A DNA stretch of 26,556 bases. It comes from a virus. This document shows, piece after piece, positions 4,476-24,733 of the stretch. Location of the stretch: the UHGV virus genome UHGV-0062447; one strand, written 5' to 3'. The position numbers and the translations under genes are program-made. How positions within the stretch are numbered: position 1 is the stretch's first letter; the number at the start of each line of letters is the position of its first letter. The notes beneath the pieces are model-generated. The model was not told the DNA's origin, made no database searches, and saw only the letters and a list, made by a program, of their open reading frames with translations.

Positions 4476-4899
4476 GTTTCACCGTCCACATTTCTTCAGG
4501 TTCATCGGGTTCCGCTACAGCTTCAACGCTCGACACACTGCCGTCAGTGCTGACCAGCACACGTTCCGTCAGTTGCAGGTTAAGGCTGATATCACAGACA
4601 TCGTTGCGCAGAATATCCACCTCAAAGGTGAATAGTTTTTCCCGTAACGCCGGGTTATTGATGGCATCGGGCTGGTTATCCCTCAGCCACAGCAAAACCG
4701 GGGCCATCAGCAGATTCTGGTCGCCGCTGAAATCCTCAATCACCGCGTTCAGTGTGTAACGGTACTCCCACGACATGGAGCTGGCCCCCGTGGCAACCAG
4801 CGAACCGTTATCCACAAACAGATGCAGTTTGTCCGGGTTATTGCGGACATAAGGCACCGCTTTATTGAGGGCGTGGCGCAGGGATTGTGGTTTGTTCAC
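4468..4899 (-). CDS. R: Tail completion protein R
   Basis: Translation NKPQSLRHALNKAVPYVRNNPDKLHLFVDNGS... resembles P2 gpR; GTG start at 4897-4899 preceded by GGAG 8 nt upstream. The ORF-track TTG extension is unlikely. Confidence 0.8.
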   Translation of the reverse strand: MNKPQSLRHALNKAVPYVRNNPDKLHLFVDNGSLVATGASSMSWEYRYTLNAVIEDFSGDQNLLMAPVLLWLRDNQPDAINNPALREKLFTFEVDILRNDVCDISLNLQLTERVLVSTDGSVSSVEAVAEPDEPEEMWTVKRG

Positions 4900-5152
4900 T
4901 GTTTCGCTCCTGACACGCAATAATCATGTCCACTTTGTCTGCACAGACCGCCCAGGCGGCCTCCGTTTCATCCAGCAACGCATTCAGATCACCGTTAGTG
5001 CGTGGTGCTGCCTGCTCCAGCCGACACGGCGTCACTCGCGGACAACCACTGACGGTAAGCTGCACCTCCGGTGAGTGCCGGACGTTCCCGCAGCCGGATA
5101 ATGTCAGCAGGCAAAGGAGTATCAGCCCAGTGGCGTAAATCCTCGTTCTCAC
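4862..5152 (-). CDS. lysC: LysC, Rz1-like outer-membrane spanin lipoprotein, overlapping lysB out of frame
   Basis: N-terminus MRTRIYATGLILLCLLTLSGC has a signal peptide plus lipobox (LSGC); embedded in / overlapping the lysB frame as in P2. GTG start; exact start uncertain. Confidence 0.6.
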   Translation of the reverse strand: MRTRIYATGLILLCLLTLSGCGNVRHSPEVQLTVSGCPRVTPCRLEQAAPRTNGDLNALLDETEAAWAVCADKVDMIIACQERNSEQTTIPAPRPQ

Positions 5153-12804: not shown

Positions 12805-14478
12805 TTAAGATTTATGGCTAAAGAGTATACCTGTAACAGAACGTTGATAGGCATCAAGCTTCTCTTGCCTCTGCTTAAATTTAGATTTGATATCACTAAT
12901 ACTCGGAATACCTATTACTCCAAGGCCTGCACTTAACGTCGCTAAAGTAGTATTGCCAGTCAGCGCTCCAGCAATTGCTATAGCACCATTTGCGATACAT
13001 GGTAGGACATCTAGTCCGTAAATTCTCAATTTCTCTTTTTGGGCTTTTGCAAGAATCCTTTGATGTTCAATAAAAGCCCGGTCTACATTATCAATTACTT
13101 TTTGCGTTGTCCTCGAAAAGCTCTCTGCCGAAGAATTGATTAAAGAGTCAACACCATTTGATAAGATGGATCTTACATCCTCCATCAATTTGTTACGTCT
13201 CAACTCAATTATTTTATTGACCGGTACATTTCCTAACCATGAAAAACCATCTTGCATACCAGCAGATAACGCATGAACCATATGCAAATTTTTTAGTTCA
13301 ATATCATTGACATCAAAATTAAGAGATTCGTACTCAATAAGCCAAGTATAATAGAGCCAAGATGTGTCTGCATTTATATATGGAGTACTACCAAGTTCTT
13401 GTGCATTACATTTTGCTGAATAGGCTTGCGGCATTCTTCCAATGCAGGAAAGGAAAACCTCCATTCCAGCATGATCACCAACAACATTACGTGATATTCT
13501 TTTTTTATCAGATAGTAGTTTTTCTAATTGAGTTTTTGGATTTAGCCCCCATGCTGTATCAAAAATAAGTCTATCTGCTCTCTTAATATTTTTAAGAACA
13601 GCATCAATATCATTCATCGAATAACTAAAATCTTGAAATTCATCGTAGCTTTCGAACCGTCGATCATAGAGATATTGCGCATGAGTCAGAGCATAAGGCT
13701 CACAAAAACTCATCAAATTTTTTTTGCTCTCAGTTTCAAAATCTCTTCTATCCGGCAAAATTAATACTATTGCTGGCTCTATATCTTCAAGCGCTACTTC
13801 TTTATATGTCATACATGTTAGGACATGCTTTAGAAGTATCCTTGTAAACTCAGCCTTATCTGACTTTTCATAGAGACGACCGACTCTTAATATAGGACAT
13901 GGAAGTGAAATAGTATCAACATACAACCCTGCAATAGAGACAGCATTCTCATCAAATGCAGGAAATAAGTCACCAGAAAAATTAGCTTTAAACTGAGAAC
14001 CATCCTGCAAATGTATTACACCAATATCGGATGTTACCTGCCAAAACTCTATTACCTGATTATATAACTCAGGAAAAACATCTTCTATTTGCTTAACATA
14101 TTCTTCTTGTTGAGAAAAAAAACTTGATGCTTTATGTGGCGTTGCATTAGTTTTTTTCATCAGATAAAACAACTCGCCAAAATTACTAAAAAGAATATTA
14201 AAGTAAGAACTTTGCAAGTCCTGAATAGAGTATTTGTTTTTTATATCTTCTCTTTCTAAAAAGTGATTAACCGCTGCTCCCATAGCCTTTATTCTGCCAT
14301 CAACAGTAGAAGGGTCAACTTTACCATCCTGTCGCAGCCTTATTCTTTTAAAACTTTCAATAAAACCTTCTACAAGATGATGAGCTATTTTTAGTTTTCC
14401 CGCTTCCAGTTGTTGCTTAATGAGAAAAACACGCTCAGTTAAATCGTCTACATATTCCTCATCTTGATATTTTTCCAT
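12805..14478 (-). CDS. Hypothetical 557-aa protein with C-terminal hydrophobic/glycine-rich hairpin; low-GC cargo gene between Q and cos
   Basis: Single long ORF, ATG 14476-14478 with GGAG 6 nt upstream; very AT-rich; C-terminal segment ...LPCIANGAIAIAGALTGNTTLATLSAGLGVIGIPSI... is hydrophobic; no Walker motif or other domain recognised by eye. Confidence 0.8.
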   Translation of the reverse strand: MEKYQDEEYVDDLTERVFLIKQQLEAGKLKIAHHLVEGFIESFKRIRLRQDGKVDPSTVDGRIKAMGAAVNHFLEREDIKNKYSIQDLQSSYFNILFSNFGELFYLMKKTNATPHKASSFFSQQEEYVKQIEDVFPELYNQVIEFWQVTSDIGVIHLQDGSQFKANFSGDLFPAFDENAVSIAGLYVDTISLPCPILRVGRLYEKSDKAEFTRILLKHVLTCMTYKEVALEDIEPAIVLILPDRRDFETESKKNLMSFCEPYALTHAQYLYDRRFESYDEFQDFSYSMNDIDAVLKNIKRADRLIFDTAWGLNPKTQLEKLLSDKKRISRNVVGDHAGMEVFLSCIGRMPQAYSAKCNAQELGSTPYINADTSWLYYTWLIEYESLNFDVNDIELKNLHMVHALSAGMQDGFSWLGNVPVNKIIELRRNKLMEDVRSILSNGVDSLINSSAESFSRTTQKVIDNVDRAFIEHQRILAKAQKEKLRIYGLDVLPCIANGAIAIAGALTGNTTLATLSAGLGVIGIPSISDIKSKFKQRQEKLDAYQRSVTGILFSHKS

Positions 14479-14758: not shown

Positions 14759-15370
14759 CTACGTAACCACAGTTAATGTGTGCATCCTGTCTCGAATTGC
14801 ATCACACGTCTCATCAAAAAGCTTGGTGATGGTTGTACAGTTCAACTCCGCCTCTTTCCAATAATTTTGCCCGTCAAATTCTGGATCGCTATGCTTAAAC
14901 GATATTGACTCTGAAAGGCATTCCTTCCGGAAACGGTCCAAGATTATATAAACCTCTGGTGAGATGAACGGTTTGTTAGATTCAACACTTGTAACAAAAG
15001 TGTTAAATGCATCAAAAAAAACTTTCAACCTTCTAAATTTTCTCTCTTCAAATGGTTCGTTGGGGTCAACATGATCCAGCGCAGGCCTCAGCTTAAGCAC
15101 GCTTTCTCTGGTTTCAAACATCGAATTCCAAATGAGACTATATGCTGATAACTCCTTATCAAAATACGCTTTCGTTACATAAACAGAATTGTCTAACTTA
15201 GCCTTTATTCTTTCATTAGTTGCACTCAGTTGTGATTGAAATTCAGCAATATCTTTGTTTAGCCGCGACTTATATCTTTCTAAATAAACTTTCCCGATCC
15301 AAACAAATATGCCAGATGCAACAAAAGACACCCCACCCAACGAAGCCAGAACTTTAAAGACTAAATCCAT
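14759..15370 (-). CDS. Hypothetical 203-aa membrane-anchored protein (N-terminal TM helix); low-GC cargo gene between cos and the SOS operon
   Basis: ATG 15368-15370 preceded by AGGTGGGGG; N-terminus MDLVFKVLASLGGVSFVASGIFVWIG is a predicted TM helix; AT-rich; nothing recognised in the remainder. Confidence 0.8.
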   Translation of the reverse strand: MDLVFKVLASLGGVSFVASGIFVWIGKVYLERYKSRLNKDIAEFQSQLSATNERIKAKLDNSVYVTKAYFDKELSAYSLIWNSMFETRESVLKLRPALDHVDPNEPFEERKFRRLKVFFDAFNTFVTSVESNKPFISPEVYIILDRFRKECLSESISFKHSDPEFDGQNYWKEAELNCTTITKLFDETCDAIRDRMHTLTVVT

Positions 15371-20495: not shown

Positions 20496-20720
20496 CTATC
20501 GTTCTTTGTTCTTACGGTAACGCTCAAGGGGAGATACATTTTTTCGTACCGTCTCTTTAACCTGCTCTCCCCGTAAAAACGTCCCATCCTTTAGTGTGAA
20601 AAAGTAACTGCCATCGCCCGACAACGACGGATAACAACAGAGCAAATCATCTTCAGGTACTGAATAACTATCCCCTCTGTAACGAAACTGATAAACCACT
20701 TCACTTTCTGCCGCATACAT
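20496..20720 (-). CDS. Hypothetical early-operon protein (74 aa)
   Basis: ATG 20718-20720 preceded by GGAGAAAG; overlaps out of frame with an 80-aa ORF (20591..20833) that starts inside the direct repeat. Confidence 0.5.
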   Translation of the reverse strand: MYAAESEVVYQFRYRGDSYSVPEDDLLCCYPSLSGDGSYFFTLKDGTFLRGEQVKETVRKNVSPLERYRKNKER

Positions 20721-20810
20721 TTGGACTTTCTCCGTTTCCTCGTGGTCACTTCAGACAGCAATTCATCTTGTGAATAACATGGATGCCAGCGTTTACCATC
20801 CTCACCCATG

Positions 20811-20870
20811 ATCCAGCCGTGACCGTAGTGCATTGCCGGGCTTTGTTTTACCAGCAGCGATGCAAATGAT
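20811..20870. repeat. 60-bp direct repeat, copy 1 (59/60 identical to 21614-21673)
   Basis: ATCCAGCCGTGACCGTAGTGCATTGCCGG[G/A]CTTTGTTTTACCAGCAGCGATGCAAATGAT read at both sites; a weaker GGATGCCA match lies about 25 bp further out at each copy. Confidence 0.9.
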
Positions 20871-20960
20871 TGTGCCGGGAATTTTTCTACACGCCCGGCG
20901 CGTGCCTCAGTGGTAGACTATTTGTGCTAACAATCATCTACCCCTCAAAGGAGAAAACTG

Positions 20961-21041
20961 ATGTCAGAAACAGACAACTTTCATGTACTCCCTCGCCCGG
21001 CTCCAGCACCTCAGCCTGAACCGGGGCAAGAGAAGAAATAG
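20961..21041 (+). CDS. Mini-ORF (26 aa, MSETDNFHVLPRPAPAPQPEPGQEKK) with a strong RBS, immediately upstream of the 2-TM protein gene
   Basis: AAAGGAGAAAACTG-ATG (consensus-like SD); stop TAG 9 nt before the next ATG. Not in the ORF track (too short). Confidence 0.4.
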   Translation: MSETDNFHVLPRPAPAPQPEPGQEKK

Positions 21042-21050
21042 GAATCCGGC

Positions 21051-21509
21051 ATGACTAAACAAAGCTCCGAATACTTCCAATTACACTACTGTTATTACCT
21101 TGAACTAATGACAGCAACGTTCCATGGTCGAGCTGATAAATTAATGACAGCAATCCAACTTATAAGCGGAACAGCTGTATTTGCTAATACAGGTCTGGAA
21201 TGGTTGTTCGCTTTTCCTGTTGTTGTAATCGCAACAATCCAACTTGTATGGCAACCAGCTATTATTGCGGAACGAGCAAGCGTACAAAGCCGACAATATG
21301 GTGAGTTGCTTTACGCCGAGGATGAATTGTCTCCACAGTTCATTGCACAAAAATTGAAAGCTTTGCATCACTCTGACTCCACAACATTCGGATCTTTGTT
21401 AAACCCTGCCTACAAAAGAGCTGCTATTGCCTGTGGTCGGGTTGACGATGTAAACCTCAGCTTCCAAGAAAAACTTTTCGCTTGGTTCGCAGGTTGTTTG
21501 CCACGTTAA
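21051..21509 (+). CDS. Hypothetical membrane protein (152 aa, two predicted TM helices), opposite strand to the early operon
   Basis: ATG 21051 with AGGAAT upstream; hydrophobic segments LMTAIQLISGTAVFANTGLEWLFAFPVVVIATIQLVW; lower GC than the surrounding backbone; followed by hairpin CCCCGG-N11-CCGGGG (21545-21567). Confidence 0.65.
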   Translation: MTKQSSEYFQLHYCYYLELMTATFHGRADKLMTAIQLISGTAVFANTGLEWLFAFPVVVIATIQLVWQPAIIAERASVQSRQYGELLYAEDELSPQFIAQKLKALHHSDSTTFGSLLNPAYKRAAIACGRVDDVNLSFQEKLFAWFAGCLPR

Positions 21510-21613
21510 CCATAAATCTTTGTAGGAATCGCTTTTTATTTCTTCCCCGGTAAGCCTGTTGCCGGGGTTGTAATTCAAAACTTGGATGCCACTTTTTCCC
21601 ACAAGGTAAATAA

Positions 21614-21673
21614 ATCCAGCCGTGACCGTAGTGCATTGCCGGACTTTGTTTTACCAGCAGCGATGCAAATGAT
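21614..21673. repeat. 60-bp direct repeat, copy 2
   Basis: See copy 1; lies just downstream of the cII stop. Confidence 0.9.
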
Positions 21674-21697
21674 GGTTCTTTCGTCAGCATAAGCACC

Positions 21698-22207
21698 TCA
21701 CAGCAAACCGAATGAAGCACCGAGGCCAGTCACGGTATCAACTGCACTCGCCATCGCAGGATTAGCCTGTAAACGGGCCTGCAATGAAACAGCAGCCAGC
21801 GCCATCAGTCGTGTTACAGAGTTAATGCTGCTGATAGCATCACGACGACCTGCACTGGTTTTTACATCGCCAGATACCGCACCTGCAGCAACACGTCCGA
21901 TCTCTGCGGTTGCACTCATGACGTAATGTGGCAGTTTCTCTTTTGCTACCTCATTAATCGGTACACATGGCAGACAGTGAATCTGAGCCAGAAAGCCATC
22001 TACCAGCGTCGAATCTTCAGTCAGATCGGTAAGCAGCCAAATTTCTGGTGCGGTTAATAAATGAGGTTGAGCAGGGTTCAACTTGTTTCGCAGAATCTGC
22101 ACATTCATTCCTGCACGTCCTGCCAGCTGCACCAGGTTGTGGCGCAGTGCGAATGCACGACAGGCTTCATCAAAATGTGGATGTTTGGAAACTTGGTAAT
22201 CAAACAT
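21698..22207 (-). CDS. cII: CII-like lysogeny-establishment regulator (186 CII family)
   Basis: From ATG 22205-22207: [24 protein letters not shown]...[15 protein letters not shown]...[26 protein letters not shown]... closely parallels 186 CII (169 aa) as recalled. Confidence 0.85.
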
Positions 22208-23205: not shown

Positions 23206-23388
23206 ATGCTTGGTAAGTTTTTTTTTGTGGTTTTATCATGCTCTTTGTTATTAAACCCACTAACTACCTATGCTAAAAATTATCCTTGTTCTGGGAAAAA
23301 GGGAGGTGTCTCTCACTGTACCTCTGATGGAAAATTTGTTTGCAATGATGGAACCATCAGTAAATCCAAAAAAACATGCATCAAATAA
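23206..23388 (+). CDS. Small predicted secreted Cys-rich protein (60 aa: signal peptide plus ~37-aa mature peptide with 4 Cys)
   Basis: ATG 23206 with GGAGG 5 nt upstream; [60 protein letters not shown]; AT-rich; starts 15 bp after the cI stop. Confidence 0.65.
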
Positions 23389-23401: not shown

Positions 23402-24733
23402 ATGAGCACAGATATAACTTTCGATATACGTGATGAATATAAAAGAAAAGCCATTGCAGAAAAAATAATAAGTTTGCTAGAGTCTAATATTCCTGTTTCA
23501 CCTATGGTCATAGATGGGGACTGGGGGACTGGAAAAACAGAGTTTTCAAAAAAGTTAGCATCCTTAATTGAAATAAACTCGACCAATCATAAAGTAGTTT
23601 ATATAGATGCTTTTACTGAAGATCACAACGATGCTCCCATACTTACAATAATGGCCGCAATTGCAGCTCTATATAATAGCGATGAAAAAAAGGAATTAAT
23701 ATCTAAGGCATTGCCAGCCCTCAGATTCGGACTTAAGACTGTACTCAAAGCTGGTGCTGGTTGGGTATTAAAACAAAATGCGGATGAAATTAATGAGGAA
23801 TTTGAAGAGGTTATCAAAGACGCTGCAAATTCAGCTATCGATGGAACCATCGAGGCTCTGTTAGAAGATCATATCGAGGCACAAAAGAACGTTCTTGCTC
23901 TAAAAGAAGTACTAACCAAATTAGCTGGAGAAAGTAAACTAACAATAATTATAGATGAGTTAGACAGATGTAAGCCTAGTTTTGCCATTTCTATTATTGA
24001 AAATATAAAACATGTTTTTGATATAAAAAACATTAACTTTTTATTAATTGCAAACACAACTCAACTAAAAGCATCCATAAATCATATCTATGGCTCTTCT
24101 GTAGACTCCAACCGTTATCTTGACAAATTTATAAAATTTACATACAGCCTTCCTGTTACCTTTAAGGAAGATAATTATAATGACACTTTAACTTCCAAAA
24201 ATCATTGGATGATGCTATGTGAGCAATCTGAAAGGCTGACCGCTGCAGTAGAAGCCAGCGAAGATATTTTCTTACAGTTCATTGAAAGTAGAAAATTATC
24301 ATTACGTGAGGTTGAAACACTTGCTAGATATGTTGAAATATACCAACTACTATCAGGCGACAAAATTAGCAACAAATATATTTATGGATATTGTTATTAC
24401 AGGACTCTAGCGATAATAATCTACACTTTTAACCGAGAGTTAGCTCTCAACTTTCTTGAAGATAAAGTTGATGCTCAATCAATCATGAAATTGTTTGGTT
24501 TGTCTAAATTTTCATATCAAACAAGTGAATATAATGTAGATAATTATGAATATGCTATATTTGGAATAGTTTACAAATACTTATCTGAAAACTCATCTCT
24601 TTTACCTACTGAGGAAAATATAAAAAGACAATGGGCAGAAATGAGTGAATACCATTTTTTAAAAGGTAGTGGCGGTATTGGTGAACCAACAAATATTGTG
24701 AAAGATGCTTTAAAAGTTTTTTTACTTCAGTGA
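23402..24733 (+). CDS. KAP-family P-loop NTPase (443 aa)
   Basis: Walker A in the KAP-typical form GDWGTGKT and Walker B IIIDELDRC (DxLDRC); AT-rich; ATG 23402 preceded by AGGAA. Confidence 0.75.
   Translation: MSTDITFDIRDEYKRKAIAEKIISLLESNIPVSPMVIDGDWGTGKTEFSKKLASLIEINSTNHKVVYIDAFTEDHNDAPILTIMAAIAALYNSDEKKELISKALPALRFGLKTVLKAGAGWVLKQNADEINEEFEEVIKDAANSAIDGTIEALLEDHIEAQKNVLALKEVLTKLAGESKLTIIIDELDRCKPSFAISIIENIKHVFDIKNINFLLIANTTQLKASINHIYGSSVDSNRYLDKFIKFTYSLPVTFKEDNYNDTLTSKNHWMMLCEQSERLTAAVEASEDIFLQFIESRKLSLREVETLARYVEIYQLLSGDKISNKYIYGYCYYRTLAIIIYTFNRELALNFLEDKVDAQSIMKLFGLSKFSYQTSEYNVDNYEYAIFGIVYKYLSENSSLLPTEENIKRQWAEMSEYHFLKGSGGIGEPTNIVKDALKVFLLQ

Follow-up and report, generated by a model that had tools for sequence, protein, structure and literature searches.

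A candidate mobile cassette encoding a proline-rich micro-protein and a two-helix membrane protein inside the fil gene of a P2/186-like prophage

Introduction

How does a segment of 743 base pairs (bp), with genes read against the direction of the surrounding operon, come to lie between two nearly identical 60-bp sequences in a temperate phage, and what might it do there? The question is raised by virus genome UHGV-0062447, whose 26,556 nucleotides (nt) were analysed as a whole and are called the window below. This stretch comprises the regulatory and structural region of a prophage of the P2/186/Fels-2 kind (Peduoviridae), and it is 100% identical to prophages of E. coli NGF-1, NC101 and about 38 further complete genomes. 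A first-pass annotation, made from the letters of the window, had reported that the segment carries a mini open reading frame (mini-ORF) for a proline-rich peptide of 26 amino acids (aa), a 152-aa protein with two transmembrane (TM) helices and a hairpin. Morons are autonomous promoter-gene-terminator units of temperate phages, an example being the HK97 gp15 exclusion moron. Our answer, which is tentative and to which we give slightly less than even confidence when the origin is taken jointly with the exclusion mechanism proposed below, is that the segment is a mobile accessory cassette of this moron kind, acquired inside the phage gene fil along with the 3' portion of a fil allele of the Fels-2 type.

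The insertion and its empty site

The repeat search aligned positions 20811-20873 with 21614-21676, and 61/63 bases of this pair agree. Counted strictly, 60 nt are duplicated (20811-20870 equals 21614-21673 at 59/60 positions), in agreement with the first-pass description, and the next three bases (TGT versus GGT) form the junction. Chance can be excluded as the source of a 60-nt repeat in 26.5 kb. The repeat had been described as sequence just downstream of cII; the position after cII is correct, but the repeat is rather coding sequence of fil (family PF10893), covering codons ~7-26. The left copy (20811-20870, minus strand, ...SFASLLVKQSPAMHYGHGWI) is the start of a 5'-truncated resident fil and is 100% identical to the single copy of phage vB_EcoM-813R9. 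The right copy (21614-21673, minus strand) forms the 5' portion of a chimeric fil that is intact; the copy is 98.3% identical to 813R9 and 86.7% identical to Fels-2.

The inserted segment itself (20871-21613) measures 743 bp between the copies, or 803 bp with one copy, and has no counterpart in insert-free relatives. Their alignments with the window fall into two pieces, the span is exactly 803 bp shorter, and a single repeat copy is present; the comparison with related prophages that the first-pass annotation had proposed therefore does recover relatives with one copy and no insert. The empty site was found in vB_EcoM-813R9, in many Klebsiella P2-like phages and in most E. coli prophages of the same type. 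When complete E. coli genomes were searched, 1309/5426 matched part of the queried cII-fil interval, and the insert is present in only 38-40 of these 1309. Insert-free phages have a single fil of 98 aa.

The two parts of the locus differ in their affinities. The flanks of the repeats are of the 813R9 type (95-99% identity), and both repeat copies are likewise of this recipient type. The ~740 bp between the copies are confined to Fels-2-type phages, at 80-84% identity. The mini-ORF, the 152-aa ORF and the hairpin are all present as first reported, but the segment holds more than these, since 21457-21613 on the minus strand is also the 3' two-thirds of a second, Fels-2-type fil allele. The insert is thus a plus-strand cassette plus a piece of fil. 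The resulting intact gene (21457-21690, minus strand, 77 aa) has 26 recipient-type codons followed by a Fels-2-type 3' part, and it matches phrog_816, cell division inhibitor, at 7.8e-26. The resident remnant (20591-20833, minus strand) corresponds to residues 19-98 of the 98-aa Fil and to positions 19-97 of 98 in phrog_32377, and it has lost its own start and Shine-Dalgarno (SD) sequence.

A side observation concerns the length of Fil. A 74-aa ORF (phrog_4312; 20496-20720, minus strand) shares, in a different frame, the final ~43 codons of fil of the 98-aa type, and the Pfam Fil domain on the resident remnant is limited to the first 34 residues. For these two reasons, the C-terminal half of the long Fil annotation may be non-coding.

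Origin of the insertion

The left edge of the Fels-2 homology lies at the same nucleotide as in the window (TTGTGCCGGG...), and the Fels-2 neighbour there is the DUF5347 gene. The heptamer AAATGAT at the left junction is common to fil and to the sequence that precedes the cassette head (described below) in other loci, and because of this double occurrence we infer a microhomology join on the left. In the scheme that we propose, an illegitimate join at AAATGAT would have taken place exactly at the head edge, while on the right a homologous crossover would have fallen in the conserved MHYGHGW block of fil. The outcome of these two events would be the 60-nt direct repeat, the intact chimeric fil and the beheaded resident fil. 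Independent support comes from another locus, L017. There the cassette occurs elsewhere in the operon, its accompanying fil fragment is truncated at this MHYGHGW block too, and the block again lies on both sides. One point speaks against the simplest form of this scheme: since both repeat copies are of the recipient type, a simple double crossover between two phages does not account for them fully. An added step would be needed, which may be the entry of a small circle with these 60 nt through one crossover of the Campbell type, or a later gene conversion.

Acquisition by recombination, as first suggested from the duplication, is nevertheless supported by the empty sites, the chimeric fil and the junctions. 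The 60-nt duplication is gene sequence homologous to the donor's own fil. A transposon with a target-site duplication was also considered and rejected, as the insert lacks terminal inverted repeats and any ORF for a transposase or recombinase, and a 60-nt duplication exceeds the length of such target-site duplications (2-14 bp).

In L017 there is also an 82-aa plus-strand ORF (4740-4988, MLSQAEKERIEQLENEV...) that lies antisense within the early operon, with the orf74 homologue on one side and the truncated fil fragment on the other. This ORF may be a further cassette occupying the same site.

The proline-rich micro-protein

The first gene of the cassette is a 26-codon ORF on the plus strand (20961-21041). 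Its proline-rich peptide, MSETDNFHVLPRPAPAPQPEPGQEKK, carries the core motif [HQ]-V-x-x-R-P-x-P-x-P. Length and spacing are the same in 50/51 distinct P2-like loci, dN/dS is 0.03-0.10, and the variable sites are distributed 10/7/23 over the three codon positions. These comparisons support the view that the mini-ORF is a real coding sequence under purifying selection. The motif [HQ]V[PLT][PYLH]R[PQ] was found 97 times in a six-frame translation of 810 kb of loci, every time at the mini-ORF position. The first-pass annotation had noted a near-perfect SD and a distance of 9 nt to the 152-aa ORF; both are present, and to them can now be added selection and motif conservation. No match for the 26-aa product was obtained in Pfam, NCBIfam or PADLOC.

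The pairing with the two-TM (2TM) protein extends across clades. In nearly every clade examined, an upstream proline-rich ORF is retained, even where the 2TM protein is only ~25-40% identical. The ORF ends 2-16 nt (mostly 7-14) before the 2TM start in P2-like phages, in Pasteurellaceae lambdoid prophages, in a Rac/e14-like clade and in loci L098, L099, L100 and L102. For example, the upstream peptides are MERKRDGRGHVPPRPTPPPKPR and MKIEKEERSHVPPRPTPQPKPR in the Pasteurellaceae lambdoids, ...QVPYRPTPAPKPKK in the Rac/e14-like clade, ...YQPPRPRPTPPPK in L099, ...HVPLRQKPPVPPKPPKEN in L100 and ...IYRTPPPPPPPRSD in L102. The upstream ORF is longer and poorer in proline in L097 (Mu-like) and L101. 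A stop-codon readthrough that fuses both ORFs was rejected, as the two are in frame in P2-like phages and not in the other clades (gaps of 7, 8, 10, 13, 14 and 16 nt).

Some loci carry more than one such ORF. In Pasteurellaceae loci the 2TM gene is immediately followed by a second, paralogous proline-rich ORF (MAEPTPSQESYQPKRPTPPPKK, which in L075 overlaps through TAATG; MLTADRDDYSYRPKNPTPPPKK; MSDDYSYNPKKPTPPPTKK), and in L100 there are two paralogues downstream. The coordinates of these extra mini-ORFs (...SYQPKRPTPPPKK, ...HGHVPPKPKPPKPKK, ...FHIPPRPRPPDPGPK) are 5484-5552 in L075, 5496-5564 in L072, 5496-5555 in L078, and 4476-4550 and 4570-4638 in L100. Some cassettes therefore encode two or three peptides that are paralogues.

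The two-helix membrane protein

The second gene (21051-21509, plus strand) starts 9 nt after the TAG of the mini-ORF and encodes a predicted inner-membrane protein of 152 aa, which ends in a conserved AW(F/L)AG-LPR motif. The sequence predicts two adjacent TM helices, at residues ~31-49 and 51-70, with both ends of the protein in the cytoplasm. An AlphaFold model made from a 117-sequence alignment (pLDDT 94) contains helices at 6-43, 50-67 and 69-88 and three further C-terminal helices; the shape is a long helical hairpin holding both TM segments, with a small helical C-terminal domain. The two TM helices of the first-pass annotation are borne out by the prediction and by the model. With respect to Fels-2-type copies the dN/dS of the gene is ~0.04. 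A profile search gave 170 family representatives (at 50% identity) of 150-180 aa, with the near relatives in Enterobacterales P2-like prophages.

For the class of this protein, several distant signals point in one direction. A Foldseek search of viral structures (BFVD) placed SLATT-domain proteins at the top, with probability 0.97-1.0, E-values of 0.016-0.7 and a TM-score of ~0.5. Among the 117 relatives, 12 match the PADLOC model PDLC00712 of the CBASS '2TM effector' (best 7.6e-5), and three RTasSLATT models are matched by 3, 3 and 1 members (best 2.7e-4). In Pfam the same 117 relatives gave single weak matches, below the SLATT threshold, to SLATT_fungal (0.005), SLATT_4 (0.041) and PycTM (0.024). 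A search of the PDB sequences with the family profile found no match. The modelled fold and the profile matches are thus consistent with a remote, sub-threshold link of the 152-aa protein to the SLATT/2TM class of pore-forming effectors.

The cassette head and other signals

The left edge of the mobile unit is a GC-rich head sequence, GCCGGGAATTTTTCTACACGCCCGGCGCGTG (20874-20904, plus strand), which consists of two overlapping and mutually exclusive palindromes. Stem A pairs GCCGGG with CCCGGC (20874-79 and 20894-99), and stem B pairs CACGC with GCGTG (20890-94 and 20900-04). The head is kept in P2-like, Rac/e14-like and Mu-like relatives, where each stem has several complementary variants: GCCGGG/CCCGGC, GCCGGA/TCCGGC, GCCCGG/CCGGGC, GCCTG/CAGGC, ACCGGG/CCCGGT and GCCGAG/CTCGGC for stem A, and CCACGC/GCGTGG, CGTGT/GCACG, CCACC/GGTGG, CCATGC/GCATGG and CCGC/GCGG for stem B. 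A few G.U pairs occur in the stems, and these pair on the plus strand only. Diverged copies, again with compensatory changes, were found upstream of sieB of lambda (L104, 190-225) and of the K-12 Rac prophage (L225, 3063-3100).

The distribution of the head was taken from an exact-pattern scan of viral contigs, which gave at least 120 matches; the counts in this paragraph are those among the matches listed. The 2TM family follows the head in 29/121 instances, and the others precede at least 33 families of first ORFs. All 29 proline-rich first ORFs are those 29 with the 2TM family next. When flanks are clustered, 113 head instances link 55 left-flank clusters to 52 cargo clusters, with up to five cargos per flank. 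The gene upstream of the head, where its strand could be decided, is on the opposite strand 43 times versus 6. These patterns suggest that the head places the cassette in a large class of interchangeable, antisense, presumably lysogen-expressed units, and that it may serve as a homology anchor for cargo exchange. In L069 (~4503-4570) a second head (GCCGGGTTTTAGCCATGCCCGGCGCATGG, then TGTGGTAGGAT) stands directly after the terminator of the first cassette, which suggests tandem cassette arrays.

Other roles for the head were considered and rejected. As an intrinsic terminator it lacks a U-tract on the minus strand and has a short one on the plus strand in lambdoid versions only. Promoters for sigma-54, sigma-28 or sigma-E and a CRP site are at odds with its spacing and its core bases. 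An operator overlapping a -35 element does not agree with the distance to the -10 element, which is 9 nt in the window versus 30 nt in L083. In K-12 Rac the annotated small RNA KilS (L225, 2906-3003, minus strand) occupies the interval from kilR to sieB, at ~60 nt on the upstream side of the sieB head.

Downstream of the head there is a candidate extended -10 element, TGGTAGACT (TG-n-TAnAnT; 20911-20919, plus strand). It has no -35 match, and for this reason it was missed by a generic promoter scan. Across 8 P2-like sequences (TGGTAnAnT), no variation occurs in the TG or in four bases of the hexamer (T, A, A and T). The mini-ORF has the SD AAGGAG (20948-20953, plus strand), 7 nt before its ATG, with an anti-SD pairing energy of -8.7 kcal/mol. 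The 152-aa gene has the weak SD AGGA (21040-21043, plus strand; -4.2 kcal/mol), which overlaps the TAG of the mini-ORF. The same layout is seen elsewhere: in most of 16 clade representatives the peptide stop lies in or beside the 2TM SD (UAGGA, UAAGGA, UGAGG, UAAGAGG), and across gaps of 2-16 nt the upstream SD is the stronger one in most clades. Because the weak SD overlaps the peptide stop, translation of the 2TM protein is probably coupled to that of the peptide.

The hairpin reported earlier after the 152-aa ORF was found at 21545-21567 (plus strand, CCCCGGTAAGCCTGTTGCCGGGG), inside the fil 3' coding sequence of the opposite strand, and it is probably a weak terminator of the cassette. Its region folds weakly better than shuffled sequences (z = -1.1). 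In Fels-2 the stem is kept with altered inner pairs. The hairpin has a G.U pair on the plus strand only.

Distribution of the pair

The pair recurs in many unrelated temperate phages (P2-like, lambdoid and Mu-like), and in 9/10 gene-called contexts both of its neighbours are on the opposite strand. Its usual place is an early operon, next to the repressor or to defence-like genes. In the window it is found between cII/fil and the early genes downstream; in lambdoid prophages it separates the early-left genes from the repressor, and defence-like genes (GmrSD_N+HEPN, PDDEXK_GAPS4) are frequent neighbours. A blastn search of the Rac/e14-like clade against E. coli genomes gave no match. An autonomous, opposite-strand unit of the moron type agrees with its absence from relatives with contiguous flanks and with its own orientation.

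The first-pass annotation had named, as an opposing outcome, an arrangement that belongs to the conserved backbone with a known early gene on the plus strand. The first half of this applies in part: in Fels-2 and in dozens of Fels-2-like prophages the cassette is a standard genome component, in the corresponding relative position. The second half does not, as the plus-strand 152-aa ORF is no known early gene and belongs to phrog_6315, 'unknown function', in PHROGs. No paper was found in the literature on Fels-2 STM2734, WP_000166365 or phrog_6315.

The annotation of Fels-2 deserves a remark of its own. Its RefSeq record has a 134-aa minus-strand ORF, STM2733.1, over the cassette (L002, 2595-2999; NC_010463, 30256-30660), and the plus-strand 26-aa and 152-aa ORFs (L002, 2592-2672 and 2682-3140) are unannotated. 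Since the conserved genes are the plus-strand ORFs, the record probably has the wrong strand at this place.

Proposed function and alternatives

What could such a pair do for a lysogen? We propose that the cassette would be transcribed from its own candidate promoter while CI holds pR off. On induction, converging transcription from pR and the antisense RNA would silence it, so that the prophage's own lytic cycle would be unharmed. The 2TM protein would act as a remote SLATT/CBASS-2TM-like effector that permeabilises the membrane. The co-translated peptide would be its partner, at a guess most likely an inhibitor or gate, supplied in excess from the stronger ribosome-binding site. The pair would then give the lysogen SieB-like exclusion of superinfecting phages or abortive infection against them. 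We consider a lysogen-expressed module of this kind the best reading of the locus, and we hold it provisionally, at just under an even chance.

Four observations weigh against this proposal. The 152-aa protein of the window was unmatched in Pfam, NCBIfam and PADLOC, and for the SLATT and PycTM families of Pfam nothing appeared even at E<=10. No cyclase, SMODS/SLOG, TIR or reverse transcriptase partner was found in the window or in the gene-called contexts. The net charge of the peptide, whose inhibitor role is a guess, differs between clades. Finally, the U-tail of the hairpin is weak and is absent in Fels-2.

The main rival is that the mini-ORF is a cis-acting leader. Slowing or stalling of the ribosome on the proline-rich chain, in the manner of MgtL/MgtP, CutF or arrest peptides, would set the level of the 2TM protein and sense prolyl-tRNA, elongation factor P (EF-P) or a phage-induced shut-off. 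A leader-peptide reading was already contained in the first-pass annotation, and it is weakened by the points given below. In its favour is the short conserved ORF directly upstream: it is there in every clade, with its stop overlapping the 2TM SD, and its amino-acid sequence is conserved beyond a mere open frame. True polyproline runs, for which EF-P would be needed, occur in several clades (PTPPPK, TPPPPPPPR). CutF/CutO, in which a proline-rich upstream protein controls the translation of the next gene (PMC9973294), also counts for this rival. On the other hand, a leader role is impossible for those paralogues that follow the 2TM gene in Pasteurellaceae and L100. From clade to clade, the distance between the R-P of the motif and the stop varies over 8-15 residues, and in the window peptide no two prolines are adjacent. 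Folding of the leader RNA is no stronger than that of shuffled sequence (z = 0.40), without an alternative structure, and Rfam gave no match at E<=1 in 20700-21750. Because of the downstream paralogues, the variable distance from motif to stop and the lack of a special leader structure, the peptide is probably a product in its own right and not only a leader. We therefore favour a co-translated partner peptide, and give the cis-acting leader about one chance in four.

A second alternative keeps the peptide as a partner and removes the anti-phage role. The pair would be a toxin-antitoxin-like addiction or host-physiology module, in which the peptide neutralises a membrane toxin or the envelope is changed for the lysogen. 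A small upstream gene with a stronger SD, the tight spacing and the extra peptide copies of some clades would suit a pair of the type II toxin-antitoxin kind, as would an autonomous cassette that moves among unrelated temperate phages. However, the cassette is consistently near immunity regions and beside defence-like genes, it shares its head with sieB, and its protein resembles immune 2TM effectors. For these reasons phage exclusion is favoured, and we rate the addiction module as unlikely, clearly below the leader.

A bolder form of the partner hypothesis is a little less probable again. The peptides may be intracellular ligands of the ribosome exit tunnel or of DnaK, similar to proline-rich antimicrobial peptides (PrAMPs), which gate a SLATT-like pore; abortive infection would then read the state of translation or of the chaperone, and the head would be a common nucleic-acid switch or exchange site. 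If this were true, the head would mark dozens of uncharacterised prophage-expressed cassettes, sieB included, and could be a beacon for new phage-exclusion genes.

More improbable than this is that the peptides are themselves the active agents, either as oncocin/pyrrhocoricin-like inhibitors of the exit tunnel or of DnaK or as leaderless bacteriocins, with the 2TM protein as immunity or release factor. Insect PrAMPs have a YLPRP(T/R)PP core, which several cassette peptides resemble: HVPPRPTPPPKPR, HIPPRPRPPDPGPK and DYQPPRPRPTPPPK contain [YH]-[LV]-P-R-P-x-P-P. Several peptide genes around one small membrane-protein gene is also the usual layout of a peptide-bacteriocin operon. Against this, known PrAMPs are cationic and the peptide of the window is slightly acidic; genes for an exporter or for processing are missing, as is an export signal, and the likeness is one between low-complexity sequences. 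No phage-encoded example of an exit-tunnel peptide was found in the literature, and none was found there of a proline-rich leader peptide in a prophage.

The last rival, that an assembly artefact or mere debris of recombination explains the segment and that the real gene, if any, is the minus-strand STM2733.1 ORF (134 aa in the Fels-2 RefSeq record, and open as a 135-aa antisense ORF in Fels-2 and L017), is refuted for practical purposes by the same arrangement in 38-40 complete E. coli genomes, by the breakage of this ORF into 76- and 67-aa pieces in the window, and by plus-strand ORFs that are conserved to 25% identity under strong purifying selection with a pLDDT-94 fold.

Comparison with known systems

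The exclusion module that we prefer can be compared with SieB of lambda, P22 and Rac. There, too, one small gene for an inner-membrane protein (162-184 aa in Rac and lambda) runs antisense to the early operon close to the immunity region, and it is expressed from the prophage (P22 SieA paper, PMC10883804). The lambda and Rac sieB genes share the nested-palindrome head, and cassette family members in lambdoid prophages occupy the sieB position. The proteins themselves are unlike each other: hhalign of the 2TM family versus lambda SieB gives a probability of 0.3%, and there is no PF14163 match; the family is not homologous to SieB. Unlike the cassette, sieB has no proline-rich upstream ORF. Self-immunity to P22 SieB depends on an internal product, Esc, and on the sas antisense RNA (PMC12197685), and neither is seen in the cassette.

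With the SLATT/CBASS 2TM proteins and the reverse transcriptase-associated SLATT proteins (DRT/UG-Abi) the cassette protein shares the kind of fold, a TM hairpin flanked by cytoplasmic helices. Characterised SLATT systems have a partner that generates or senses a signal, whereas the constant partner in the cassette is a peptide of 20-60 residues that is usually proline-rich. PANGU, in which a nucleoid-protein sensor is combined with TM or SLATT effectors (bioRxiv 2026.04.06.716658), was considered and set aside, as its sensor is a bona fide nucleoid-associated protein and not a proline-rich peptide.

The likeness to a moron lies in the presence or absence of the cassette between genes that are adjacent in relatives, in its promoter-like and terminator-like signals, and in its spread among unrelated phages. 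It differs in that it was inserted inside a gene with a 60-nt duplication, and in that a head common to dozens of cargos is outside the classical definition. Among papers on morons is 'The moron comes of age' (PMC3594210).

In hok/mok/sok, translation of a membrane toxin depends on an upstream frame, and an antisense transcript shuts the toxin off. Dependence on an upstream frame would be the common feature, and so would antisense shut-off, for which the early lytic transcript would serve in the cassette. The differences are that mok and hok overlap and that conservation does not reside in the peptide sequence of mok, that Hok is a single-TM protein of ~50 aa, and that no dedicated promoter for an antisense small RNA was found in the cassette. 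MgtL and MgtP of Salmonella are proline-rich regulatory upstream ORFs. With these and with CutF-CutO the cassette shares a short proline-rich ORF directly upstream of a membrane-related gene on the same mRNA; it differs from them in having no alternative RNA structure, in its downstream paralogues and in the variable distance from motif to stop.

Taken together, 'superinfection exclusion or toxin-type moron', as the first-pass annotation had put it, is still the best guess at a function, with circumstantial support. The combination of a moron with a SLATT-like membrane effector, an obligatory proline-rich micro-protein and a shared head appears to be new, since neither the literature searched nor the 2023 defence catalogue contained an earlier description.

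Significance

Prophage exclusion and abortive-infection genes shape the infection of pathogenic and commensal E. coli by phages, and the carriers here include NC101 and NGF-1. The cassette family is outside the current defence catalogues (PADLOC 2023, Pfam, NCBIfam). It ties a remote SLATT-like effector to an obligatory, conserved micro-protein that genome annotation ignores, and at ~0.75 kb it is a small and clean experimental system. The shared head may be the more general lead, as it suggests a common regulatory or exchange element for a class of lysogen-expressed genes.

Neighbouring genes of the prophage

The early lytic operon is on the minus strand, and the plus strand carries cI, a 60-aa ORF, a KAP NTPase gene and int. 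An apl/cox-like gene (22475-22272, minus strand) is the first listed feature of the early operon, followed by cII (22216/22207-21698, minus strand; PF06892). After cII the minus-strand order is fil, the 74-aa ORF, DUF5347, DUF2732, a TraR/DksA gene, dam and replication gene A. The integration site of the prophage adjoins rcdA.

Two further regions of the window correspond to hotspot positions. Where P2 has its tin/old hotspot, replication gene A and the terminase/portal genes are separated by minus-strand ORFs of 557 aa (12805-14478) and 203 aa (14759-15370); both are without a Pfam match, and the 557-aa ORF has only a weak PADLOC match, to DitB (5.9e-10). On the plus strand, cI (to 23190) is followed by the 60-aa ORF (23206-23388), which has a signal-like hydrophobic N-terminus without a family match and stands directly before the NTPase gene. 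The latter (23402-24733, between cI and int) encodes a P-loop NTPase of the KAP family, with a PADLOC match to the candidate defence system PDC-S20 (E 2.6e-171). A defence hotspot at this cI-int position was noted in Vibrio P2-like phages (Rousset et al. 2022, PMC9122126).

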